This document shows, piece after piece, positions 367 through 64,000 of a DNA stretch of 64,000 nucleotides (position 1 is the stretch's first letter; each line of letters begins with the position of its first letter). Source of the stretch: Patescibacteria group bacterium. Lineage in GTDB: Bacteria; Patescibacteriota; UBA1384; XYA2-FULL-43-10. The notes under the pieces were generated by a model. The model saw only the letters and a program-made list of their open reading frames with translations, was not told the DNA's origin and made no database searches. The position numbers were made by a program, and so were the translations under genes. Location: contig JBAYVT010000005.1 in NCBI GenBank assembly GCA_041674405.1, forward strand, positions 77,047 through 141,046, read 5' to 3'.

Positions 367-407
367 AACATTTACCTAAGATATTAGTTTTAAGTTATTA
401 GTTAATA

Positions 408-1085
408 TTACACTTTTTTAACTTGCAAGAAGTCTAAGTTTACAGGTGTTTCACGACCAAACATATTAACAAGCACTTTGACAGAACCTTTGTCTTGGTT
501 AATTTCTTCAACCTTACCTTCAAATCCCTTGAGTGCCCCATCGGTAATACGAACCAATTCGCCTTCTTTGAAATCGACTTTATACTTTGGTTCTTCAACA
601 CCCATTCGTTTCTTGATTCTGCCAATTTCATCCTTCGACATCGGGGTTGGGCGAACGCCGAATCCAATAAATCCGGTAACATTCGGAGTGTTTCGAACAA
701 CATACCAAGAATCATCAGTTACAATCATGTCAACAAGGACATATCCTGGGAAAATTCTTTTTTCAACGGTTCGTCTTTTACCATTTCTGATTTCGATTTG
801 CTTTTCTTTTGGAACAATGACATCAAAAATTTTATCAGCCATGCCAAGAGATTCGATTCTCTGTTTAAGGGAATCAGCAACTTGTTCCTCGTATCCAGAA
901 TAAGTGTGAATTACATACCAGTTACGCTCGCCAGACTGCTTTAAGGTTAGAAAGCTTTTCTTTTCTTCGTCGGCTTGTGGTGATGGCTCTTCTTCCTTGA
1001 GAATCATCTCTTCGGTTTCACTCTCGCCCGAAACCTTATCGACAGAAACAGGCTCTTCAATTTTTTCAATTTTTTCTTCTGCCAT
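408..1085 (-). CDS. nusG: Transcription termination/antitermination factor NusG with an acidic N-terminal extension
   Basis: 225 aa. The NGN domain starts at NWYVIHTYSGYE and there is a C-terminal KOW motif (GELVRITDGALKGFEGKV). About 50 aa of E/K-rich leader precede the NGN domain. Confidence 0.9.
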   Translation of the reverse strand: MAEEKIEKIEEPVSVDKVSGESETEEMILKEEEPSPQADEEKKSFLTLKQSGERNWYVIHTYSGYEEQVADSLKQRIESLGMADKIFDVIVPKEKQIEIRNGKRRTVEKRIFPGYVLVDMIVTDDSWYVVRNTPNVTGFIGFGVRPTPMSKDEIGRIKKRMGVEEPKYKVDFKEGELVRITDGALKGFEGKVEEINQDKGSVKVLVNMFGRETPVNLDFLQVKKV

Positions 1086-3488: not shown

Positions 3489-4465
3489 ATTCCCAATCCA
3501 ACAGCCTTATGCACCCTTCCAAGGGTTTCTGTGGCAATAGGCCAAACTTTATTGGCTCCTTCGTTCAATAATTCCTTGATTTCAGATTCACTTGATATTA
3601 TTTTGTTGTATTTTTCCTGTATTGGGCGCAAATATTCAATAATGACTTCAGTCAAAGATTCCTTGAATTCCTTGTACCCTTTGCCGACAAACTCCCCTTC
3701 GATTGAGCTAATTTCTTTTCCGGTGACCTCGTGATAAATGTTCAATAAATTGGTGATCGCAGGCCTTTCTGTTCCAGATTTAACTTCCGATCCAGAATCG
3801 GTAACCGCGCGCATTATTTTTTGCTTGACAATGTCCGCTGTGTCAAACATTGAGATATAGTTGTTTGGGGTTGAAGATGATTTACTCATTTTCTTTTCCG
3901 GGTTATCAAGACCCATAATTCGGGCGGATGTTTTTTTAATTAGTGGCTCAGGTATAGTAAATATTTGGCCAAATTTGCTATTGAATCGAATGGCAATGTC
4001 ACGGGTTAGCTCAACATGCTGTTTTTGATCATCACCAACAGGCACATGGGTTGTCCCATAAAGAAGAATATCGGCCGCCATAAGGACGGGGTAATCGAAC
4101 AAACCGGCAGAAACCGAGTCAGAATCGCCTCCTTTATCTTTAAATTGGGTCATTCGTTTAAGTTCGCCAATATTTGTAAAACAATTCAAGATCCAGGCAA
4201 GTTCGGAATGTTCCGGTCTTTGAGACTGGACAAATAGAGATGATTTTTTAGGATCAATTCCTGCTGCCAAATAAAGCGCAGCCAAAGATATGATATTTTT
4301 CTGAAGCTCCTCGGGGTCTTTTGGTACAGTTATGGCATGAAGATCAACAATACAAAAAATAGATTGCTCGGCATCATTTTGAAGATCAATCCATTGTTTA
4401 ATTGCACCCAAATAATTTCCGATGTGTATTTGCCCTGTTGGCTGTATACCAGAAAAGATCTTCAT
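3485..4465 (-). CDS. trpS: Tryptophan--tRNA ligase
   Basis: 326 aa. Class I motifs: HIGH-like GQIHIGNYLG and KMSKS (KMSKSS), the TrpRS signature. Confidence 0.9.
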   Translation of the reverse strand: MKIFSGIQPTGQIHIGNYLGAIKQWIDLQNDAEQSIFCIVDLHAITVPKDPEELQKNIISLAALYLAAGIDPKKSSLFVQSQRPEHSELAWILNCFTNIGELKRMTQFKDKGGDSDSVSAGLFDYPVLMAADILLYGTTHVPVGDDQKQHVELTRDIAIRFNSKFGQIFTIPEPLIKKTSARIMGLDNPEKKMSKSSSTPNNYISMFDTADIVKQKIMRAVTDSGSEVKSGTERPAITNLLNIYHEVTGKEISSIEGEFVGKGYKEFKESLTEVIIEYLRPIQEKYNKIISSESEIKELLNEGANKVWPIATETLGRVHKAVGLGI

Positions 4466-7633: not shown

Positions 7634-8392
7634 CTAAATCCTAAAATATCCAAAATACCAATCAATAAAATATTGTCCCCAAATAAGGGCAATCAGCGCC
7701 GAGGCAATCAAAAACGGGGCAAATGGCAAACTATCTTTCATTTGTTTCTTTTTAGTAGCTAAATATATTACACCCACTATTGAACCGAGAACAAAGGCAG
7801 CGAAAATCAGAAACATCGCTCGCGGATAGCCAACCATGGCACCAACCAGAAAACCAAGTTTGATATCGCCTGCCCCCATCCATTTTTCCCTAGATACAAG
7901 CACGAGTATAAGCGGGATCGCTCCACAGATTAATGAACCAATGAGCATATTAGATAATCCAAAATTTCCAAAATACCATGATCCCAAAAGGGCGATTACA
8001 AGCCCTGTCCAGACAAATTCTTCCGGAATCAGTTCGGTTTTAAAATCATATACAAAAACGACGGTGAGTATAGAAAACAAAATCGCATAAAAAGCAAATT
8101 GCCACCCCAGCCCAAAAATATAATATAAAACTAAAAATAATAGGGCTATCCCCACCTCAACGATTGGATATTGGATTGATATTGTTTTTTTGCAATATCT
8201 GCATTTTCCGCGCAAAATAACATAGCTTAAAAATGGGATAAGATCATACCATCTCAGCACCTCTTTGCAATGTGGACAATGTGACCTAGTATAAAGAACG
8301 CTTTTCAAATCATCAATACGGAAAATTATAACATTCAAAAAACTGCCAATCGCCAGTCCCACAAGAATCGCTATGATTGGATAAATATACAT
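7634..8392 (-). CDS. pilD: Prepilin peptidase (A24 family, PilD-like)
   Basis: 252 aa polytopic membrane protein. The N-terminal Zn-binding tetracysteine CPHCK...CRYCKK and the conserved ...MGAGDIKL... aspartyl motif are present. Confidence 0.85.
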   Translation of the reverse strand: MYIYPIIAILVGLAIGSFLNVIIFRIDDLKSVLYTRSHCPHCKEVLRWYDLIPFLSYVILRGKCRYCKKTISIQYPIVEVGIALLFLVLYYIFGLGWQFAFYAILFSILTVVFVYDFKTELIPEEFVWTGLVIALLGSWYFGNFGLSNMLIGSLICGAIPLILVLVSREKWMGAGDIKLGFLVGAMVGYPRAMFLIFAAFVLGSIVGVIYLATKKKQMKDSLPFAPFLIASALIALIWGQYFIDWYFGYFRI

Positions 8393-8424
8393 TAAAAATA
8401 CTCCTTATTCAATTTTTAAATTAA

Positions 8425-8450
8425 TACCCACAGGGTCCCCCTAAGGGGAC
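8425..8450 (-). terminator. GC hairpin between the pilin gene and pilD (terminator/attenuator)
   Basis: GGGTCCCC-taa-GGGGACC immediately after the pilin stop. Confidence 0.45.
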
Positions 8451-8461
8451 CTTTGTAGAAA

Positions 8462-8974
8462 CTAATCTGTTAGCGCATAATTGTAGTTTGCGGGCAACCC
8501 AACTGTTGAGGTTGGTGCTGTTGCATTCACTATTTGATATGTGCCCTCAGTGGCTCCCGGAGTAGCCTCACCTTTATCCGAATCTGCTGTATTTTCAAGC
8601 TCTGCGGCTAGAGCAAAATCAGCCGGGGTGCCAGCAGTGCCATTGTGGGATAAATACATATACGGATTTGTTCCCTGTGGATCTGCAGGCATTGTCTTAA
8701 GATAAAGCCCTCCCGCAATAAGAGCGGCTGTAACCGTGTTTCCAGAAGCTGCCAAAGATTCAAAAGTATCATCAGCGGTAGCAGCCGGGAATTGATCCTT
8801 GTCCGTGTTATATTGGGCGAGAGCGGACTTGATCGTACGAAGATCATTTTTTCTTCTCGCATCGCGAGCCTTGGCTCTGGCACCATTAAGCGCTACAAGC
8901 ACCATAGCTGCCAAAATGCCAATGATGGCGATAACTACAAGAAGCTCAATTAATGTAAAACCTCTTTTTTTCAT
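8462..8974 (-). CDS. Type IV pilin (probable major pilin, paralog of 9005-9427)
   Basis: 170 aa. [45 protein letters not shown]. Strong SD (AGGAG) upstream. Confidence 0.85.
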
Positions 8975-9004
8975 AAAAACTCCTAATGATTTATTAGTAT
9001 TGTA

Positions 9005-9427
9005 CTAATCGCAGTTTGATGTTGAGCCAACAGTACAAGTAATAGATGGATACCCCGTAGCAGGAGTTACAGCCATTGCTGTTAACGTCGTTCCATTTAA
9101 AGCATTGGTTACCGTGTAGGAGTAACCGTCACTGGCAGCTGTTAATGTTGGCCAAACAACATTTGCCGCATCTGATGATACGCCTGCGGGGATATTGCTG
9201 CAGATATTACCAGAGGGGGTTGTATTTGCGTGAGCTGCACCAAGATTTCCACCATCTACCACACAAATAGAAATCGTCTTTAGGGCCTGGTTAAGATTTG
9301 AAACTGCTGCAGCTTTTTTGGCGGCCGGCCTTGCATTAGATAATGCAATAATAATGATCGTCGCCAAAATGCCAATGATTGCGATAACCACCAAAAGCTC
9401 GATAAGTGTAAAACCTCTTTTTTTCAT
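9005..9427 (-). CDS. Type IV pilin (probable major pilin)
   Basis: 140 aa. Its N-terminus [22 protein letters not shown] is identical to that of the neighbouring gene. Strong SD (AAAGGAGGAAT-ATG). Confidence 0.85.
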
Positions 9428-9497
9428 ATTCCTCCTTTAACGCTTATTACAGTCTTGATCGACCCCTCCTAGGACAAGACAGTTTTTTATATTAAAA

Positions 9498-10700
9498 CTA
9501 CTGAATTTGCGCAATATTATAAATCGGCACCAAGATTGCAAAAATGAGAAATGCCACGCCAAAGCCAATAACCAAAAGCACGGCTGGTTCAACCAGAGTG
9601 GAAATGCCCTTAATTTTTTCGGATGTTTCAGATTCATAATATGTTGCAACCTTATCCAGCACCTTATCCAGTTTGCCAGTCTGCTCACCAACAGCTACCA
9701 TCTGCCCCATAAGTCCGGGAAAAGAAACGTCCTTGGAGAGTGGAACGGAAAGCGGAACACCTTTTTCTACTTCTAAAGCCATCTGCGCGATACTTTCTTC
9801 GTAAATTTGATTATTCATTGTGGCACCAGCAATTTTTAATGAATCAAGTATTGGCACGCCAGACGAAATTAGCATTTCGAGCGTACGCGAAAATCTGCTC
9901 ATGTAAATCCCTTCGGATAATCCTTTAATACCGGGAATTTTCAATTGCCATATGTTTAGTGTTCTGGCTCCCACGTCAGAAACGAGCCAAAAACGAATTC
10001 CCAAAACCAACAAGATCAAGATTATCAAAGCTAGCCACCACATATTTGTGAAAAATCCTGAAAGGGCTATCAAAACCCGCGTGGCCACCGGCAATGTAAC
10101 ACCATTCGCCTTAAAAATTACATCTAATTTTGGAATAACCGCAACAAGCATATATACACCAATACCAAGCAGGGCAACAAGTATAAATATCGGATAATAA
10201 AGTGCGCTTTTGATCTTGCCCACAAAATTGTTATCATTTTCATATTTATCAGCCAGTTGCGATAATACCACCTCGAGATTACCCGTTGTTTCTCCTGATC
10301 GTGCAACAGACACGAAGATTCGGTCAAAAACGTTCGGATGTTTTGCCAGTGCTGTTGAAAAAGCGTAACCTTCTTCGATATCCTTGAAGATTTCATAATA
10401 AGCAGCCTTTAATTGTTCATTCCGCGCTTGCTTCGCGACGATACTCAATGCTTTTGACAATGTAAGCCCAGCACCAATCATTGTGGCGAGTTGGCGGGCA
10501 AAAACAGCTTTGTCTTTTAGGGTTGCTTTGGAAACAAACAGATTATTAAAATTTAGTTGTTTCCTTTCTGCGATAATTTCACTAGGAAACAACTTGTTTG
10601 AAAGGAGCATTTTTTCAGCCGCAAATTCATTCGCCGCTTCTACCGAGCCGGTTACATTTGCCCCTTTGTCGTTTTTTGCTTTAAATAGAAATTTCGCCAT
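9498..10700 (-). CDS. pilC: Type IV pilus assembly platform protein PilC (GspF family)
   Basis: 400 aa with duplicated GspF domains and 3 TM segments. Confidence 0.85.
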   Translation of the reverse strand: MAKFLFKAKNDKGANVTGSVEAANEFAAEKMLLSNKLFPSEIIAERKQLNFNNLFVSKATLKDKAVFARQLATMIGAGLTLSKALSIVAKQARNEQLKAAYYEIFKDIEEGYAFSTALAKHPNVFDRIFVSVARSGETTGNLEVVLSQLADKYENDNNFVGKIKSALYYPIFILVALLGIGVYMLVAVIPKLDVIFKANGVTLPVATRVLIALSGFFTNMWWLALIILILLVLGIRFWLVSDVGARTLNIWQLKIPGIKGLSEGIYMSRFSRTLEMLISSGVPILDSLKIAGATMNNQIYEESIAQMALEVEKGVPLSVPLSKDVSFPGLMGQMVAVGEQTGKLDKVLDKVATYYESETSEKIKGISTLVEPAVLLVIGFGVAFLIFAILVPIYNIAQIQ

Positions 10701-10782
10701 ATATCAGTTTGTTGTTATTGGTCCGTAGTTTTTAGTTAATTTCAACTGGCTTTTAGTTTTTATATTTAAGTTATTAACTAGC

Positions 10783-11853
10783 TTAATAAACCATCATCTT
10801 AAAGCTCTTCGGATCAAGCGACCATGAAAGCGCATCCTCGAGCGTAATTTCGCCCCTTGATACCAATTCAGCCAACACTTTATCAAGGCTGATCATGCCT
10901 TCAGACGCAGAAGTCTGAATCACATTTGGAATTTGATGAATTTTACCTTCACGAATCAAGCTGCGAATTGCAGAGTTCGCAATCATAATCTCTGCGGCCA
11001 TGACGCGACCACCATTGACTTTTGGAATCAATCTTTGTGACACCACCCCAAGAAGCACTGAGGCTAATTGCGATCTTACCTGTTGTTGCTGGTGTGGCGG
11101 AAAAACAGAAACAATACGATCCGCGGTTTGAGCAGCGGAATTTGTATGAAGTGTGGTAAACACTAAGTGGCCAGTCTCAGCCATCGTAAGAGCCGCATCT
11201 ATGGTCTCCAGATCTCGCATTTCACCCACCAGAACAACATCCGGGTCTTCACGAAGGGCTGATCGCAGTGCACGAGCAAAAGTATTGGTATCCTGCCCGA
11301 CCTCTCTTTGTGAAATGAGTGATTTTTTGTGTTCAAAAACATATTCAATTGGGTCTTCAATCGTAATGATATGATTGCGTTTTTCGGAATTTATCCGGTC
11401 TATCATTGCAGCCAATGTGGTAGATTTTCCTGAACCAGTCGGTCCGGTAATAATTACAAAACCCTGGCTTGGCTCGGTAAATTTCTCTAAAATCGGCGGC
11501 ATGCCCAGCTCTTCAAATCCCCTAATTTTGCTCGGAATTAAACGAAGCGAAGCAGCTTCGTAGCCCTTTTGGTAGTAAATATTGACACGAAAACGCATTT
11601 CTTTGTAACCAAAAGAGAAATCAATCTCCTTTTTCTGTTTCAAAAGAAGAAGAACATCTTCAGATACGATACCCGAAATCAACTCTTTGGCTTTTGCCTG
11701 AGTGACTGCTGGCACTTCTGGAATCGAGAACAATTTACCATCTACGCGTAATGTGACCGGAACACCCACGCTAATGTGAATATCAGAAGCATTCTTGGAT
11801 ATCGCATATTCAAGATATTTGCTCATTTCCGGACTTAATTTCCCCTCCGTCAT
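10783..11853 (-). CDS. pilT: Twitching-motility retraction ATPase PilT
   Basis: 356 aa. Walker A GPTGSGKST, Asp box and His box (TLHTNSAAQTADRI), with a PilT-length C-terminus lacking an N-terminal extension. Confidence 0.85.
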   Translation of the reverse strand: MTEGKLSPEMSKYLEYAISKNASDIHISVGVPVTLRVDGKLFSIPEVPAVTQAKAKELISGIVSEDVLLLLKQKKEIDFSFGYKEMRFRVNIYYQKGYEAASLRLIPSKIRGFEELGMPPILEKFTEPSQGFVIITGPTGSGKSTTLAAMIDRINSEKRNHIITIEDPIEYVFEHKKSLISQREVGQDTNTFARALRSALREDPDVVLVGEMRDLETIDAALTMAETGHLVFTTLHTNSAAQTADRIVSVFPPHQQQQVRSQLASVLLGVVSQRLIPKVNGGRVMAAEIMIANSAIRSLIREGKIHQIPNVIQTSASEGMISLDKVLAELVSRGEITLEDALSWSLDPKSFKMMVY

Positions 11854-11950
11854 ATACCCTCCAAAATAGTACTAAAGAGCACCTATAACCATTATAAATA
11901 TACGCTTAATTGTAGTCAACTGCTTTTAAGATTTTGAGGTTAACGCTTTA

Positions 11951-14470
11951 TTAGCTGCTTGTTGCACGGAATACTTCATCAATAGTGGTCAAACCCTCAA
12001 GTGCTTTAAGTATTCCATCTTGTTTCATCGTAATCATCCCGTCTTTTAAGGCCGCTTCTCTGATTTCGTTCGCCGGCCTTTTCTCAACAGTAAGGGCCTC
12101 AATTTCATCTGTCATGCGCAAAACTTCAAATATGCCGATTCTTCCCACATAACCTTGTGAACAATTACTGCATCCCACGCCATGGTAGAATTTAAATTCT
12201 GATGGAATTCTTTTTTTGTCTTGTTCGTTTTGGGCTGATATGGCGGATAATTCTTTTTTAACCTCTTCGATAAACGCTTGCGGAACTTTCATTTCCTCTT
12301 TGCACTTTGGGCAGATTCTACGGACTAGTCTCTGTGCAATAATGATGTTGATTGAAGAGGTGATCAAAAACGGTTCAATTCCCATATTTGTAAATCTGGG
12401 CAAAGCGCCCGAAGCATCATTCGTGTGAAGAGTAGAAAGTACGAGGTGGCCAGTAAGCGCGGCGTGAGTTGCCATCTCAGCAGTTTCCCCATCCCTAATT
12501 TCACCAACCATCACCACATTTGGGTCTTGGCGCAGTACACTGCGCAATCCTTCTGCAAAGGAAAATCCGATACCTGGTTTTACCTGGCACTGGTTAACTC
12601 CATTAATTTCATATTCAACAGGATCTTCGAGGGTAACAATATTCACCGATGGTTTACTGATTCGATTAATAATTGCGTATAAAGTTGTGGATTTTCCAGA
12701 ACCAGTGGGGCCTGTGGACAGAATAATTCCGAATGGTTTTCCGATCGCCTCAATAGTTAAATCAAAACCACGGCCGATCATCCCCAGGTCTTCAAGGGAA
12801 AGAATGCCCTGATCTTTGTCTAGGATTCTCATCACAATCTTTTCGCCATGCACCGTAGGCAGTGAAGAAACTCGAACATCCACCTCTCGATTCTTAAATG
12901 TAACGTCAAACCTTCCATCCTGCGGAACTCTTGTTTCATCAATTTTCAGTTTTGACAAAATCTTCACACGGCTCGTAATCGGAGGATGCAAAGACAACGG
13001 CAATCTGATAATATCTCTCAAAATTCCATCAATTCTATATCTGACGCGCAGATCCTTTTGTTCTGGTTCAATATGAATGTCAGATGCGCGCTCAAACAAA
13101 GCGAAATTTATTAAAGCAGCAACTATCTTGGGTGCCGAAGAATTCTTGATATTGCTTTTTAGGCCCTCGACATCAACAATATCTCCTTTAAGATAGGCCC
13201 CGATGTTTTTTTCGCTTTCTTCCACGCTTTCATCAGTTTTTGGATTTTTTTCAAGCTCTTCCGTTGCAATTTCGCTGATATCAGTCTTTGATTCGAGATC
13301 AGGATTATCACTTGGCTGCTCACCATTTTGCCCTGCAGTCTTATCTTCAACGCCATCGCCAGTTTTTGATTCAGTCTTTGTGGGTGATTTTATATCTTCC
13401 GGGGCAGTAATATTGCCAACCGCAGCTGTTTCTCCGCCTGGCTGAGCCCCAAATGGGGCAACGATTGTCTCTTTTTCATCCCCACTCTCTTCGCTGTCAA
13501 TTCTAATTACTGGCGTTACCTGAGAAACGGGCTCCTTTTTTCCAAGAAAAGAGCCAAACAAGCTCGAAAGTGTAATAATTTCATCACCAGATGATTGCTT
13601 TTTTTCAATAACTTTTTCTTTGGTTTTTTCTTCTTCCACCTCTACTTTGACAGAATTTTCTTTTTTATTCTCAAGCTTTTTCTTGTATGCCTCGATCGCA
13701 TAGTCGATATCTTCGCGAGAAGTGGCAAAAATTTGAAAATTAATTTTGTTAGCATTCTCCAAAGATTTGATGGCCTTGTGCAAAGCAGTATCATCTGGGT
13801 TCTCTGCTGCCAGAGCGAATGAATTATCCGTTTTTTTGTAAAAAACAACTACCCGATACTGCTCAATAAATGAAAGCGGAAGCTTGCCCAGATATTCCGA
13901 CCTTATGTCCTGATTTCGCAAAAAGACCGTCGGATAACTTCCGGTAGACAATAAATCCTCAAACTTTCCCTTTTGGTCGTATTGTTTTAACGCCTCCAAA
14001 AAATCTGATTTTGCGGTTATATATAAATCTAAATTCAAATGCCTATCTTCGATAATTTTTTGAAGGCCCTTGTTGAAATTTAGAGACAATTCCGTGGGAT
14101 TGGCAACAGCAAGCTGCAATGATCCCTCCTTAAGCCCAAATGGGATCACAGAAAATTTTTCTGCAACTGATTTCGGTATAATACCAAAAACATCGTGTGG
14201 AATTTCAAAATTCTTTAGGCTGACATATGGGATTTTCAAAAGAATACTATACGCTTTGTTTATGGTGTCCGAACTGACAATACGATTTTTCAAAAGAAAA
14301 TTTTCCACATCTCTATTGGTTCGGTATTTTTTCTTGAGTTTGGTTGCGTCAGGTGCGGTTAGTAATCCCTGCATTACAAACACATCCAAAACAGACTGGG
14401 TAATAGAATTATAATCCAATCCATTCAAAAAATAAGAGTTTTTTGAAACTGTTTGTGACATTGTATTCAT
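11951..14470 (-). CDS. pilB: Type IV pilus extension ATPase PilB/GspE with N-terminal GspE_N domains and a long acidic low-complexity linker
   Basis: 839 aa. The C-terminal core has GPTGSGKSTT and the tetracysteine CPKC...CSNC motif. About 175 aa of K/E/S/D-rich linker separate it from the N-terminal domains. Confidence 0.85.
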   Translation of the reverse strand: MNTMSQTVSKNSYFLNGLDYNSITQSVLDVFVMQGLLTAPDATKLKKKYRTNRDVENFLLKNRIVSSDTINKAYSILLKIPYVSLKNFEIPHDVFGIIPKSVAEKFSVIPFGLKEGSLQLAVANPTELSLNFNKGLQKIIEDRHLNLDLYITAKSDFLEALKQYDQKGKFEDLLSTGSYPTVFLRNQDIRSEYLGKLPLSFIEQYRVVVFYKKTDNSFALAAENPDDTALHKAIKSLENANKINFQIFATSREDIDYAIEAYKKKLENKKENSVKVEVEEEKTKEKVIEKKQSSGDEIITLSSLFGSFLGKKEPVSQVTPVIRIDSEESGDEKETIVAPFGAQPGGETAAVGNITAPEDIKSPTKTESKTGDGVEDKTAGQNGEQPSDNPDLESKTDISEIATEELEKNPKTDESVEESEKNIGAYLKGDIVDVEGLKSNIKNSSAPKIVAALINFALFERASDIHIEPEQKDLRVRYRIDGILRDIIRLPLSLHPPITSRVKILSKLKIDETRVPQDGRFDVTFKNREVDVRVSSLPTVHGEKIVMRILDKDQGILSLEDLGMIGRGFDLTIEAIGKPFGIILSTGPTGSGKSTTLYAIINRISKPSVNIVTLEDPVEYEINGVNQCQVKPGIGFSFAEGLRSVLRQDPNVVMVGEIRDGETAEMATHAALTGHLVLSTLHTNDASGALPRFTNMGIEPFLITSSINIIIAQRLVRRICPKCKEEMKVPQAFIEEVKKELSAISAQNEQDKKRIPSEFKFYHGVGCSNCSQGYVGRIGIFEVLRMTDEIEALTVEKRPANEIREAALKDGMITMKQDGILKALEGLTTIDEVFRATSS

Positions 14471-14475
14471 TTCTC

Positions 14476-14730
14476 TTATTCCGGATTAGCAAATGGGTTT
14501 GCTTTGCCCATTTTTGTAGTTGGGTCAGGAAGCGGTATTCCGGCATTGTTCTCACGACCCTGAACAAGCGTCTCAGCTTCATCCTTAACCCCGGAGATGT
14601 CAAGAGTAATATAAGATGCCGTATTTTGTACCGAGATGCTTGAATTATTTTTCCAGATCATGTAAAAACCAACGATAGCGATCGTGAGAAATATTAGGCT
14701 TAAAATTAAATTGAATGTTCTTTTCTTCAT
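14476..14730 (-). CDS. Small single-pass membrane protein in the T4P operon (unknown; possibly a pilus assembly accessory protein)
   Basis: 84 aa with an N-terminal TM helix. It is operonic with the pilO-like and pilB genes. Confidence 0.4.
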   Translation of the reverse strand: MKKRTFNLILSLIFLTIAIVGFYMIWKNNSSISVQNTASYITLDISGVKDEAETLVQGRENNAGIPLPDPTTKMGKANPFANPE

Positions 14731-15299
14731 TGTGTCTCCCCCGCACTAACACTTCCTCTGGTATAAACCTCCAGGGTATAAGATGCCGATATGATATTTT
14801 CTTCCGGAGAAGTCATTGATAGCGCCTTTATGCGCATAAATTTAATGCTTTTTTCGATCGTGTCGGTAAATGCGCTTATGTTTTCAAAAGAACCGGAAAC
14901 TGAAAAACTTACATTCAATAGATTTCCTGCTGTTACAGTTTCCGCCCCCTCGCCCTCTGTGGTGGAGATTGCAGGAGCAATGTCTATGGATGGAACAGCC
15001 AATGAATTTTTTGTAGCCATTGCCTCAATTTCAGAAATTAAATTCGGCTCATCATTGTCGGATGGAACCGCGATCAAAAGCTCATTAATGGTATCCGATA
15101 TAGAAGATAAGCTGCTCTTTGCCTCTTCGATCGAAGCAATTTCATTTTTTGCATCCGAGACTTCTGCCGATAATTTCTCTGCTTCAGCCTTGTTGTTAGA
15201 ATACGATGGAAGAATAATCTTCCACGATATCAAGAAAACAATAATTGTAAGAATTACTGCGATTGAATTTGAAGCCATTTTGCTGTTTGTTTGTTTCAT
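14727..15299 (-). CDS. PilO-like pilus assembly protein (bitopic, coiled-coil)
   Basis: 190 aa: N-terminal TM helix, coiled-coil (AEAEKLSAEVSDAKNEIASIEEAK), periplasmic domain. Positioned between the pilN-like gene and pilB. Confidence 0.5.
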   Translation of the reverse strand: MKQTNSKMASNSIAVILTIIVFLISWKIILPSYSNNKAEAEKLSAEVSDAKNEIASIEEAKSSLSSISDTINELLIAVPSDNDEPNLISEIEAMATKNSLAVPSIDIAPAISTTEGEGAETVTAGNLLNVSFSVSGSFENISAFTDTIEKSIKFMRIKALSMTSPEENIISASYTLEVYTRGSVSAGETQ

Positions 15300-15312
15300 G
15301 ATAAATCCAATT

Positions 15313-16080
15313 TTATGGCGCTACTTCCGGAGTTATGTTTTCTGTGTTCACACTATCTCCGTAACCATAGGTTGAGCTGCTATCAGTCCCGGAACTATCC
15401 GTTGTGACACTGCTTGATGTTGAAGCAGGTGTTGATTCGCTGGTTTCAGTTTCAGCATTTGATGACGTAGTAGTAGAAGAAGATGTGCTGCTCTCGGTTG
15501 TGACTTCCTTTGTCGTATCTAGCTTGAAGGAAACAGAAAATGTTACTTTTTCGTTTGGCGGCGCATCCTCTGCCGTCGACATGGAAACGCTCTTTAGCTG
15601 AAGATCAGAAACTTTGTCGTATGATTTAAGCGCAAGCATAAAATCTGCAACGGTGCGATATGATGCGGTAGCGCCATCTAGGCTAGCTGTTCCATCGGAA
15701 GTGAGAGCGATCGTTGAAATATGAACATCCTTCGTAAAATGCAAATACAAGTTATCTAGAACCTTTTTCTTGCTTTCCTGCTGAGTGGAAACTTGAGATA
15801 GGATTGAAATTACATTTTTAAGTCCAGTAACGTCATTGATAACTTTTTGATTTTCCACTAAAGCTAGGGTTGCATCCGCGGATTTTTTTTCGCTTTGCTT
15901 TTCGGAAATTGTAGTCTTAAGCGATGCGTCCGAAAACCAGATAAAACCCAAAAATAAAACCGCTACAACAAAAGATAACCAGACAATCAGAGACGAAAAA
16001 TCCGTTTCTTTTCTGTCGGCAAATTCGACTATTTCTTTACCACTTTGGTTATCGTGTACACCCGGTTTTTCTTCCGGCAT
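15313..16080 (-). CDS. PilN-like pilus assembly protein with a Ser/Thr-rich C-terminal tail
   Basis: 255 aa: short cytoplasmic N-terminus, TM helix, coiled-coil. The last ~60 aa are almost pure S/T/D/E. Confidence 0.5.
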   Translation of the reverse strand: MPEEKPGVHDNQSGKEIVEFADRKETDFSSLIVWLSFVVAVLFLGFIWFSDASLKTTISEKQSEKKSADATLALVENQKVINDVTGLKNVISILSQVSTQQESKKKVLDNLYLHFTKDVHISTIALTSDGTASLDGATASYRTVADFMLALKSYDKVSDLQLKSVSMSTAEDAPPNEKVTFSVSFKLDTTKEVTTESSTSSSTTTSSNAETETSESTPASTSSSVTTDSSGTDSSSTYGYGDSVNTENITPEVAP

Positions 16081-36075: not shown

Positions 36076-36104
36076 TCCATCATTCTTGACACTTCAACCT
36101 CATC
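36076..36104 (+). promoter_or_regulatory. Consensus sigma70 promoter upstream of the PBP1A gene
   Basis: TTGACA, 17 nt, TATAAT, an exact consensus. Confidence 0.55.
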
Positions 36105-36161
36105 TCCGTATAATTGTGTCGTTTCAAGTTAATGTAAATTTTTTCGACTAAAAATTGACTC

Positions 36162-61782: not shown

Positions 61783-62127
61783 ATGGATTTAGAAAATCCC
61801 GGATACTGGAGAAAACTTATCAACCAAGGGATGATTCGATTTTTTCTTTTAAAAGTTCTCTACAAAGACAAAGAAAGTTACGGATATAAGCTAGTCAAAA
61901 GAATTGAAGAATTGTCCGAAGGGATTTGCCGACCGACTGAATCCACCATTTATCCCGCCCTTGATCAGCTTATGAAAGGTGGATATGTGACGATACAAGA
62001 AGTCTCCGCTGGGATGAGGACAAGAAAAGTATATTCTCTAAACGAGCAAGGCAGGAGCGCTTATCGCACTGCCGCCAAAGCATACGGAGAAATAATTCCC
62101 CTACTCCGCGAAGCAATAATGCTCTAA
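61783..62127 (+). CDS. padR: PadR-family transcriptional regulator
   Basis: 114 aa. Winged HTH with GYKLVKRIEELSEGICRPTESTIYPALDQLMKGGYV. Confidence 0.75.
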   Translation: MDLENPGYWRKLINQGMIRFFLLKVLYKDKESYGYKLVKRIEELSEGICRPTESTIYPALDQLMKGGYVTIQEVSAGMRTRKVYSLNEQGRSAYRTAAKAYGEIIPLLREAIML

Positions 62128-62323: not shown

Positions 62324-62644
62324 TCACCCGAGAAGCTCGTTATGCCTCACCGGGTTGAAACTCATTACTTCCCATCCATGCTGGGCCTCTTCTAGGAGCA
62401 CGTTTGGGTCATGTTCAACTTCGGTGTACTCGTGCATGAGCATTCCGTCCTCCACTAGCGTGTATGCTTCATTGCCGCTACTGCCACCGTAGTTATACAC
62501 CCTGATCGTCGCAATCCAGGGATCGAGAAGCCCAACCTCCAGCATCCATAAGAATGGCGCACTACCCTCGAACCTGGCAAACCCATTCTGCTCGCGCTGC
62601 CTTTGCAGCTCAAGGAGGATCAACCGCTTTTCTTTTTCGGTCAT
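62324..62644 (-). CDS. Higher-GC orphan hypothetical protein
   Basis: 106 aa. SD GAGGTGA 6 nt from the ATG. A hairpin CAGTATA-gata-TATACTG lies in its upstream region. Confidence 0.45.
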   Translation of the reverse strand: MTEKEKRLILLELQRQREQNGFARFEGSAPFLWMLEVGLLDPWIATIRVYNYGGSSGNEAYTLVEDGMLMHEYTEVEHDPNVLLEEAQHGWEVMSFNPVRHNELLG

Positions 62645-62706
62645 GCTTCGTCACCTCAAAAATCAGTATAGATATATACTGAAAATAAATCAAAAGAGAA
62701 CAAAAA

Positions 62707-63174
62707 TTATTTTGTCGCCGGCGGTTTGGCTCGTTTGCCAAGTAAATTTAGATCAAGATTTTCAATATCGGATAAAATTTTATTAGCATCGGCCGATATT
62801 TTTTGTTGTATATTTTTGTCAGTAATTTTTTGAGAAAAAATGAATTCTATCGTTTTATCAAAATCATTTTTGAATTTAGTGTTAATCTTCTTCCACTCAA
62901 TATCCCTGAACGCTTCCGCTTCAGTTTCATCATACTTTATCACACTGCTTAGCATTAAAAATGCAATTGAAGGATATCCTAAATAACCCTGCCAATACGA
63001 TCCATTGTCATTTGACATAATAGAATGTGAATCGGGGTTGTACACAACATCATAGTATTTCAAACCGTCAGATGAATAAACCTTAGCACTATTTCCATTT
63101 ATATGAACCCTATTGTCAGCAATAGACCCCAAAGCTTCATATATCTTAATCTTTGGTGGCAATTTCCACTTCAT
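62707..63174 (-). CDS. Hypothetical protein
   Basis: 155 aa ORF; the stop/start is contiguous with the pspC-domain gene. Confidence 0.4.
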   Translation of the reverse strand: MKWKLPPKIKIYEALGSIADNRVHINGNSAKVYSSDGLKYYDVVYNPDSHSIMSNDNGSYWQGYLGYPSIAFLMLSSVIKYDETEAEAFRDIEWKKINTKFKNDFDKTIEFIFSQKITDKNIQQKISADANKILSDIENLDLNLLGKRAKPPATK

Positions 63175-63639
63175 TTACTGGTCCATCCTGGAAAAAATTA
63201 CTGCTAATCCAACAATGATAAGGATGAGGGGCCAAAGTTTGATGATGTGGGCAAAGGAAACAAAATTATTAGTCAAAAAAATTAAGCCGATGAAAATTAG
63301 AATGATTGCAAAGATGATTGTACCATCGCGGCGGCCTTTTGTTTTGGCAACATCTTTAACCTCGGATTTAAATTCTCGGGCAGCTCTTTTCATATTTTCT
63401 TTTGGGTCCGACTTGCCCCTTTTTGAACCGGCCAGATCTTCAAAATATGATATTTCCCCTTCTTTTGGTACAACAAGCCACATAATTATATAAACTAAAA
63501 CACCCGACCCACCCAAAAGAGTGAAGGCAACAAAAATAATCCTGACAATGTTTGGGTCAATGTCGAAATATTCTCCTAAACCGCCACAGACTCCGGCAAC
63601 CATTTTGTCTTTTTTTGAGCGCATTAGATTTTTTGCCAT
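63175..63639 (-). CDS. PspC-domain membrane protein
   Basis: 154 aa. MVAGVCGGLGEYFDIDPNIVRIIFV is the PspC domain signature. Two TM regions. Confidence 0.65.
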   Translation of the reverse strand: MAKNLMRSKKDKMVAGVCGGLGEYFDIDPNIVRIIFVAFTLLGGSGVLVYIIMWLVVPKEGEISYFEDLAGSKRGKSDPKENMKRAAREFKSEVKDVAKTKGRRDGTIIFAIILIFIGLIFLTNNFVSFAHIIKLWPLILIIVGLAVIFSRMDQ

Positions 63640-63670
63640 GATGCTCCTATAAAAAATTATGGATAAACCA

Positions 63671-63699
63671 TTGACCTAATTTAATCTATATTCTATACT
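63671..63699 (+). promoter_or_regulatory. Sigma70-type promoter of the Cys-rich micro-ORF
   Basis: TTGACC, 17 nt, TATACT; about 36 nt upstream of the micro-ORF ATG. Confidence 0.45.
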
Positions 63700-63735
63700 A
63701 TTAATACTAAATTAGTAACCTTTTGAAAGGCAAAT

Positions 63736-63792
63736 ATGACAGATCCAAAAGATGAGGGATGCGGAAACTGCGGCGGATGCTGCGGTTGCTAA
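63736..63792 (+). CDS. 18-aa cysteine-rich micro-protein MTDPKDEGCGNCGGCCGC (candidate small protein or coding sRNA)
   Basis: ATG preceded by gaaaggcaaat (weak SD). Six Cys in the last ten residues. An intrinsic terminator follows immediately. Not in the ORF track (under 60 aa). Confidence 0.4.
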   Translation: MTDPKDEGCGNCGGCCGC

Positions 63793-63822
63793 AAAATGCC
63801 CCCTAGGGGGCATTTTTTTATC
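63793..63822. terminator. Bidirectional intrinsic terminator
   Basis: AAAAAATGCCCCC-ta-GGGGGCATTTTTTTAT. It serves the micro-ORF (plus) and the convergent minus-strand membrane-protein gene. Confidence 0.75.
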
Positions 63823-64000
63823 CGCGCTCTTTTTTGTCATCGATTATCGTGAGAACTAGGAGAACAATCCCCAAAAGTGCAATTATTATTGATGCGATTA
63901 AGAAAATTCCGTAGTTGCTTTCATTGCCAGGCGATACTGAATCGGCACTGATATTAAAATAACGGCTGGAAAACAAAATCACTAGCCCGCCGCCAATACA
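63818..64000 (-). CDS. Membrane protein, C-terminal part (5' end beyond the window)
   Basis: The minus-strand frame reads ...FLIASIIIALLGIVLLVLTIIDDKKERG* with its stop inside the terminator T-run. Confidence 0.5.
   Translation of the reverse strand, partial: CIGGGLVILFSSRYFNISADSVSPGNESNYGIFLIASIIIALLGIVLLVLTIIDDKKERG

Follow-up and report, generated by a model that had tools for sequence, protein, structure and literature searches.

Does the spacer upstream of pspC in a Patescibacteria genome hold a gene of its own, and what might the product of so small a gene do? The DNA analysed, called the window here, is a stretch of 64,000 nt from contig JBAYVT010000005.1 (assembly GCA_041674405.1, Patescibacteria group bacterium). 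Near its end lies an open reading frame (ORF) of 18 codons, the micro-ORF, whose predicted product is the Cys-rich peptide MTDPKDEGCGNCGGCCGC. An earlier note, made from the sequence alone, had described it as a self-contained transcription unit encoding a peptide. The reading favoured here, with a probability of roughly 45% for the whole of it, is that of a genuine micro-gene which is independently transcribed and translated and has a metallothionein-like thiolate product. The two parts of this reading differ in strength. That the micro-ORF is a selected protein-coding gene is highly probable from its pattern of conservation. That its role lies in metal or thiol chemistry is suggested by composition alone and is tentative.

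Layout and conservation of the micro-gene

A promoter, a Shine-Dalgarno (SD) sequence, the micro-ORF and an intrinsic terminator follow one another on the plus strand (Table 1). The promoter TTGACC-17-TATACT had been claimed before, as had the SD, and both were read directly in the sequence. The promoter was the top promoter-like site within 62500-64000 (10/12). Extension of the ORF was blocked by in-frame stops directly 5' of the ATG. One of these is a TGA; a reading of UGA as sense was tried and exposed no additional start. The length of the ORF had been given correctly in the earlier note, while its start had been placed one base too late. The tail of the peptide, CGNCGGCCGC, contains five Cys and not the six counted there. 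The terminator hairpin (A6-UGCCCC-CUAG-GGGGCA-U7) had a folding energy of -17.7 kcal/mol (z -3.1), which bears out the description of an immediate and strong terminator. It is bidirectional because an A-tract and a U-tract flank the stem, and it also ends a convergent ORF for a small transmembrane (TM) protein (stop at 63818). A consensus terminator scanner missed this hairpin; the fold itself is unambiguous. The position of the -10 hexamer places the likely transcription start near 63706; with the terminator, this predicts that the RNA spans roughly 63706-63819, or about 115 nt.

Table 1. Positions of the micro-gene, its control elements, its neighbours and its counterparts; positions are those of the window unless a locus is named.
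Feature	Position	Strand	Remarks
-35 hexamer TTGACC	63671..63676	+	Read directly; identical and in the same position in L005 and L006
-10 hexamer TATACT	63694..63699	+	17-nt spacing; hexamer and spacing identical in L005 and L006
Palindrome TACTAA-A-TTAGTA, putative operator	63705..63717		Right half within conserved block ATTAGTAA (63711-63718)
Shine-Dalgarno AAGG	63727..63730	+	5 nt 5' of ATG
Micro-ORF MTDPKDEGCGNCGGCCGC	63736..63792	+	57 nt, 18 codons, TAA at 63790-63792
Bidirectional intrinsic terminator	63791..63819	both	A-tract, GC stem 63797-63812, T-tract 63813-63819; begins inside the stop codon
pspC, PspC-domain/LiaF-TM membrane protein	63175..63639	-	Pfam PspC 3.2e-27; divergent neighbour
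Small two-TM protein ORF, 3' part	63818..64000	-	Convergent; shares the micro-gene terminator
L005 counterpart MGDEKKDCGGCCGGCCPNE	889..830 (L005)	-	Same place, divergent from pspC
L006 counterpart MSDEKKNGCDCSSCPGCGSN	443..381 (L006)	-	Same place, divergent from pspC

Relatives of the PspC protein were sought among 5.8 billion proteins. Only two (P0003 and P0002) were more than 52% identical to the PspC of the window. Each was 60% identical to it and the two were 67% identical to one another. A second search, seeded from the related locus L005, gave no additional close relatives. The contigs that encode the two close relatives, L005 and L006, each carry a counterpart of the micro-ORF, and none of the three copies is annotated in the source assemblies. 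The SD in L005 and L006 is GAGG, 4-5 nt from the ATG, and the start context A(T/A)ATATG is common to all three loci. Every copy keeps the codons for x-D-(P/E)-K-(D/K) at the N-terminus, the TAA stop and an A-tract/stem/U-tract terminator 0-8 nt on. The ORFs are 57, 60 and 63 nt long, and the Cys-coding part differs in nucleotides and in length. In all three this part nevertheless specifies 4-5 Cys, set among Gly, Ser, Pro, Asn and Asp. Within the CGGCCG core shared by the window and L005 peptides the differences were at third positions only (GGA/GGT, GGT/GGC), and further synonymous differences were present at Asp3 (GAT/GAT/GAC) and Gly8 (GGA/GGT). TGC was used for 13 of the 14 Cys codons of the three ORFs, compared to 55% in the genes of the window. 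Strain copies of the window locus (L001-L004) were 99.9-100% identical and gave no information on constraint.

The SD-ATG layout and the composition are thus kept while the nucleotides of the Cys region diverge, which argues for a translated gene; the pattern across the three copies is that expected of one. The self-contained, peptide-encoding unit of the earlier note is supported by this retention in relatives with 60-67% PspC identity. Conservation in the Cys region lay at the codon level rather than the nucleotide level, as a coding gene would have it, and the ATG was present in the relatives.

Background rates were determined for the possibility of a chance ORF in an intergenic spacer rich in promoters and terminators. 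Promoter matches with at most two mismatches to consensus numbered 17 in the window compared to 11.3 expected, which alone is not beyond chance and suits this explanation, as does the ubiquity of short ORFs. Consensus-type promoters also precede real genes elsewhere in the genome (for example at 11891-11919 and 36086-36114). Among 232 ATG-initiated ORFs of 15-25 aa in the window, MTDPKDEGCGNCGGCCGC alone had four or more Cys, and just one other ORF shared its lack of F, I, L, V, W and Y. Across assorted loci totalling 505 kb, chance ATG micro-ORFs that had four or more Cys turned up about once per 23 kb and were hydrophobic. The chance expectation is about 0.01 such ORFs per 200-nt spacer and about 1e-6 for three. 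A chance origin would also have to produce the promoter, SD, ATG, Cys-rich hydrophobic-free product and terminator three times over. It is scarcely credible, and the comparative data in effect refute it.

A small non-coding or dual-function RNA (sRNA) would account for the unit differently. The 5' block AUUAGUAA..GAGG..AUAUG..GAnGAGAAAAAA would act as a seed or protein-binding region, the hairpin and terminator would give stability and the ORF would be secondary. A transcript of about 115-130 nt with a strong terminator suits such an RNA. All three transcripts folded better than shuffled sequences (z -3.3, -2.5 and -2.7), their GC-rich Cys/Gly codons form hairpins in each case, and nucleotide conservation is highest over the leader and the first codons, not over the Cys region. 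However, the internal hairpins of L006 are not homologous to those of the other two and arise from UGC/GGC self-complementarity. The Cys region is divergent in nucleotides yet remains Cys-rich, in frame and free of stops, and the SD-ATG spacing is kept. The best overlapping Rfam matches scored 24-28 bits against gathering thresholds of 50-55, and scans of L001, L005 and L006 over their whole length at the gathering threshold found rRNA only. No complementarity to the pspC leader was seen by eye. An sRNA is considered unlikely on this evidence.

The strand opposite the micro-ORF was also considered. A codon-aligned antisense frame is open in all three loci and would encode, after a basic N-terminus, an Ala/Thr/Phe/Leu-rich hydrophobic stretch (42 aa at 63840..63712 of the window; 48 aa at 333..479 of L006). 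Such a peptide could be type I toxin-like, with the plus-strand RNA as its antitoxin. The frame is open automatically, as the complements of Cys, Gly, Lys, Asp and Glu codons are never stops, and the ORF reads through the terminator (window 63712-63840, minus strand; L006 333-479, plus strand). Its ATG falls within the terminator stem and has neither an SD nor a usable promoter. L005 has no ATG, and two Arg interrupt the hydrophobic stretch of the L006 version. The differences in the CGGCCG core between the window and L005 change no residue when read on the plus strand but do so on the minus strand. The antisense ORF has very little to commend it as a gene and is disfavoured; it is probably a by-product of the codon content.

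The close fit of stop codon and terminator raises the prospect of a regulatory leader peptide. The progress of a ribosome over the Cys/Gly codons would set terminator read-through, and this would lead to antisense or interference effects on the convergent genes or tune the pspC promoter. The stop codon abuts the terminator stem, so that a terminating ribosome would occlude the 5' arm. The run of codons for rare amino acids and a sub-threshold likeness to Phe_leader (24.1 bits against 55) point the same way. On the other side, no gene on the same strand lies downstream. The earlier note had already stated this, and only convergent features were found beyond the terminator. The convergent partner is not conserved, being a small-TM gene in the window and L006 and 5S rRNA in L005. 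The gap between stop and terminator ranges over 0-8 nt, and the loci have no antiterminator pairing in common. In minimum free energy folds the terminator and a hairpin of the coding region formed separately and the loci shared no alternative pairing, three sequences being too few for covariation. The charged N-terminal D-E/P-K-K/D is kept, which a pure codon sensor would not need. The attenuation leader offered as an alternative in the earlier note is disfavoured for the same reasons, and regulation by a leader peptide is given only slight odds.

Peptide composition and proposed role

The window peptide has five Cys, five Gly, a net charge of -2 and no hydrophobic residue past Met; DEGCGNCGGCCGC is the part that follows Lys5. 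The Cys content is 5/18 in the window, 5/19 in L005 and 4/20 in L006. The Cys spacings are CxxCxxCCxC in the window, CxxCCxxCC in L005 and CxCxxCxxC in L006. All three peptides are acidic (net charge -1 to -2) and have zero F, I, L, V, W and Y and zero His. The N-terminal third is charged (x-D-P/E-K-D/K), and the C-terminal two thirds form a Cys/Gly cluster with CxxC, CC and CxC. There are 7-8 residues before the first Cys and 0-3 after the last. Low mass, a high Cys content in CxC, CxxC and CC and a lack of aromatics are the phenomenological criteria for metallothioneins, and each of these properties was found in the peptides.

Database searches placed the peptides in no family. The peptides, X-padded to 20 aa where needed, were scanned against NCBIfam, Pfam and the PDB. 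The NCBIfam scan gave no match at E<=10. The Pfam scan gave no metallothionein family at E<=10, and its sole weak match was PF12669. The L006 peptide aligned to positions 23-43 of the 44 in this model with 13.5 bits, compared to a gathering cut-off of 27 (E 0.09); the window and L005 peptides gave no match to it. A search of the PDB returned nothing meaningful, with a ferredoxin CxxCxxC echo at E 8.5. A 67-aa query of the three peptides joined by X spacers had no match at E<=10 in the collection of 5.8 billion proteins. The tblastn search proposed in the earlier note was carried out with the L006 peptide against plasmids and the L005 peptide against phages, and no match was found. A literature search found nothing relevant on Cys-rich small proteins or metallothioneins in Patescibacteria (the candidate phyla radiation, CPR), or on PspC-linked ones.

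The proposed mechanism follows from the layout and composition. A sigma-70-type promoter would drive the short transcript, and a ribosome on the AAGG or GAGG SD would produce an 18-residue soluble, acidic, cytoplasmic peptide. Its clustered thiolates may be ligands for soft metals (Zn, Cu(I), Cd, or Fe or an Fe-S cluster), or they may serve as a gene-encoded thiol redox buffer. By composition only, this would be a minimal metallothionein-like peptide. Co-regulation with the pspC/LiaF-type envelope-stress gene might occur through the shared back-to-back promoter region and the conserved palindrome. A bolder and doubtful extension would make the product the shortest known gene-encoded metallothionein or thiol buffer, acting as a stand-in for low-molecular-weight thiols or as a minimal metal or Fe-S ligand and switched on with the PspC module via the shared palindromic operator. 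This presumes that the ultra-small Patescibacteria which it would serve are without glutathione-type biosynthesis.

The same composition could belong to the precursor or core of a ribosomally synthesised and post-translationally modified peptide (RiPP) of thiazole/thioether/sactionine type, or a cofactor-like one, with modifying enzymes encoded elsewhere. Cys/Gly/Ser-rich cores are typical of thiazole/oxazole-modified microcin (TOMM), ranthipeptide and sactipeptide precursors, and the micro-peptides have a core of this kind. A gene for a 695-aa radical-SAM protein is located two genes upstream of pspC in the relative L011. L011, however, has no micro-ORF. The 7-8 residues before the first Cys are too few for a recognition leader, typically of at least 20 residues. 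The window was scanned for RiPP genes over ORFs of at least 250 aa at 1.7-45 kb, annotated genes from 53 kb to the window end, and 3.3 kb beyond. No radical-SAM, YcaO, cyclodehydratase, lanthionine synthetase or peptidase/export cassette was seen there, and the ORFs scanned were housekeeping genes (pilus, aminoacyl-tRNA synthetases, mur/fts). In all, about 75 kb around the window copy showed no maturase; there was none near L005 (6 kb) or L006 either, and no match to an NCBIfam precursor model. The check for radical-SAM or maturase genes suggested in the earlier note was therefore negative in these regions, and the Cys-rich precursor peptide it had entertained is disfavoured. A RiPP origin is very unlikely.

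Several observations weigh against the metallothionein-like micro-gene, the hairpins formed by the Cys/Gly codons among them. The three copies are the only independent sequences, too few for a ratio of non-synonymous to synonymous substitution rates (dN/dS), and the four strain copies are identical here. The number of Cys (5, 5 and 4) and their spacing vary, so no single metal site is conserved. The peptides show no significant similarity to metallothioneins or any other family. Neither a metal-homeostasis gene nor a recognisable metal-regulator box was found in the three loci. The family was not found beyond a narrow clade, a weak negative as the scans were keyed to promoter and leader and the source contigs were not contained in what was scanned.

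Genes of fewer than about 30 codons escape standard annotation. That a gene of 18 codons is conserved and strongly signalled in a reduced Patescibacteria genome implies that its function is worth retaining. If metal binding or thiol buffering is true, the peptide would push down the size limit of metallothionein-like proteins and would be a cheap gene-encoded answer to metal or redox stress in organisms of minimal metabolism. If the role is regulatory instead, the micro-ORF would be linked to PspC/LiaF-type envelope-stress modules, which are poorly understood in these bacteria. In both cases it offers a concrete test case that can be made by chemical synthesis.

Control region, neighbouring genes and distribution

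The block ATTAGTAA is invariant in the window, L005 and L006 and is located 10-11 nt after the -10. In all three loci a TACTA(A/t) that overlaps the -10 forms an inverted repeat with TTAGTA, 9-10 nt further downstream. The full palindrome of the window occurs there once compared to 0.48 copies expected, which is not significant alone. The left arm sits in the promoter in L005 and L006, so a DNA operator is likelier than an RNA hairpin, and the element is a candidate operator. Similar half-sites are present in the pspC promoter regions of relatives without the micro-gene, suggesting a regulator of the pspC locus. The pspC promoter is probably back-to-back with the micro-gene -35. The likely promoters are TTGAAA-18-TAAAAT in L005, TTGCAA-17-AATATT in L006 and a weaker TTAAAT-17-CATAAT in the window. 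A PadR-family gene lies close by in the window (61783-62127) and in L005, and PadR acting on the palindrome would be a guess. The palindrome was not found upstream of the local padR, its copy elsewhere being the single one in the window, and the PadR link is unsupported.

Linkage of the micro-gene to pspC is constant in all three loci. The neighbours of the window copy include ABC/FtsX, small-TM, PspC, UCP014422, PadR and Fpg genes. Beyond the terminator, both the window and L006 have a small-TM gene, which in the window follows ABC/FtsX genes; L005 has 5S rRNA there. The ABC/FtsX pair is also found in relatives without the micro-ORF.

The two-TM gene encodes 71-80 residues with no Pfam match and was seen in L003 (4497-4721, 74 aa), L006 (97-330, 77 aa), L009 (3561-3791) and L011 (2396-2611). 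Many of the Patescibacteria relatives that were examined have this gene immediately 5' of pspC, often with a MacB-type ABC/FtsX pair before it, and two of the four assemblies of the window locus leave it uncalled. The 3' end of a 23S-5S rRNA operon (L001 1-862, just past the window end) is about 2.8 kb from the micro-gene. In L005 the end of the rRNA operon (1-777) lies immediately next to the terminator of the micro-gene. It follows that the ABC/FtsX/small-TM block is an insertion or deletion between points that are otherwise syntenic.

Downstream of pspC in the window is a gene for a 155-aa UCP014422 (PF27709) protein (62707-63174, minus strand). In all other relatives examined this slot holds either a LiaF-TM/Toast_rack protein of about 296 aa (L005 1473-2363, L006 1035-1931) or a LiaF-TM protein of 89-128 aa. 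From this comparison, the second gene of the stress module is swapped in the window lineage. Elsewhere the window contains a type IV pilus-like cluster with prepilin peptidase, T2SSF, two T2SSE ATPases and PilN (7634-16080, minus strand), and a mur/fts division-wall cluster around 42-52 kb. Both are typical Patescibacteria content.

The unit was absent at pspC in relatives with 45-52% PspC identity (L007/8, L011, L024/25, L026, L070-72 from Woesebacteria, and L073/74). In L024/25 and L026 the spacer from the small-TM gene to pspC is about 100 nt and holds just a terminator and a TTGACA-type promoter facing pspC. L023 was uninformative as it ends 30 nt upstream of pspC. L009/10 had only a dissimilar Cys ORF, on the same strand as pspC. 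This distribution suggests that the unit was inserted into the promoter region of pspC in the ancestor of a single narrow clade and has been retained since.

The ORF of L009, MSQKFDYCLSCNCNHCN, is located in the spacer before pspC (3816-3922; identical in L010; PspC 48% identity). It has four Cys, three of them TGT, a weak SD and no terminator, and the inverted repeat ACTAAT-N5-ATTAGT lies ahead of it. This ORF may have arisen by chance, or it may be distantly related to the micro-ORF and serve pspC as an upstream ORF. In the Woesebacteria locus L070 (CP058602.1, 9322-10000) the 680-nt intergenic region upstream of pspC is full of short degenerate tandem repeats, first GTCGGACATC-like and then AATTTG/GAATTT-like units.

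Two DNA scans, of genome contigs and of metagenome contigs, were made with the pattern TTGACC-N17-TATACT-N(8-13)-ATTAGTAA. They returned 11 and 43 loci, none with a Cys-rich micro-ORF; this absence is weak evidence, as the contig of the window, L003, L005 and L006 were not returned either. The pattern also matched L019, L020, L031, L044, L046, L061 and L066 (Bacillota/Tepidanaerobacteraceae, metagenome contigs). These loci have strong promoters and then 3-4 tandem (A/T)TTAGTAA repeats upstream of a conserved ORF that starts with MKIPTNL(K/M)HKPVIVCENYENIDGRNAYKSDAKGLSLGLAQWNDRGK. The repeats look like an operator array unrelated to the micro-gene.

Comparison with known systems

Attenuator leaders such as Phe_leader (RF01859) resemble the micro-gene in having a tiny ORF enriched in one amino acid and followed immediately by an intrinsic terminator. 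They differ in that the micro-gene has no co-oriented downstream operon and no conserved alternative hairpins, and its Rfam score is below threshold. Cys-rich RiPP precursors include SCIFF/ranthipeptides and heterocycloanthracin-type TOMM precursors with CGG repeats. The micro-peptides share their Cys/Gly-rich C-terminal core, but are without a leader, an adjacent radical-SAM or cyclodehydratase gene or an NCBIfam match.

The Cys motif of PF12669 is thought to bind iron, and proteins of this family, found chiefly in Firmicutes and Bacteroidetes, have a transmembrane helix and are encoded next to feoB (PMC8749426). Their Lys-rich linker and Cys/Gly-rich C-terminal tail are the part to which the L006 peptide aligns. 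In members of the family the helix is N-terminal, ahead of the Cys-rich tail, and the gene lies downstream of feoB or is fused to it. Unlike them, the micro-peptides have no transmembrane helix, as shown by the lack of hydrophobic residues and the upstream in-frame stops, and no FeoB was found in the three loci or among the window ORFs scanned.

Ferredoxin 'maquettes' are synthetic 16-mers with CxxCxxC...C that assemble a [4Fe-4S] cluster. The micro-peptides are of comparable length, and CxxCxxC plus further Cys is present in the window (C9, C12, C15) and L006 (C11, C14, C17) peptides. L005, by contrast, has no CxxCxxC, the likeness to natural ferredoxins is at motif level only, and cluster binding by the micro-peptides is putative.

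The shortest metallothioneins include fungal Cu-metallothioneins of about 25 residues (such as that of Neurospora crassa), and bacterial examples are SmtA/BmtA and MymT. To our knowledge, no metallothionein is as short as 18-20 residues with 4-5 Cys. Cys-rich metal-binding small peptides are already known as a kind, and MTDPKDEGCGNCGGCCGC fell outside every sequence family by the membership tests applied. The micro-peptides differ from metallothioneins in their length of 18-20 residues and in matching no Pfam or NCBIfam model, and their metal binding is putative. They are like metallothioneins in their very small size, with 20-28% Cys in CxC, CxxC and CC, and in their Gly/Ser/Asn/Lys/Asp filler, lack of aromatics and His, and predicted cytoplasmic location with no signal peptide. 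The divergent neighbour of the micro-gene is a PspC membrane protein, unlike the metal-sensing repressor beside smtA. As in smtA, the micro-gene is divergent from its neighbour across a compact operator-promoter region.

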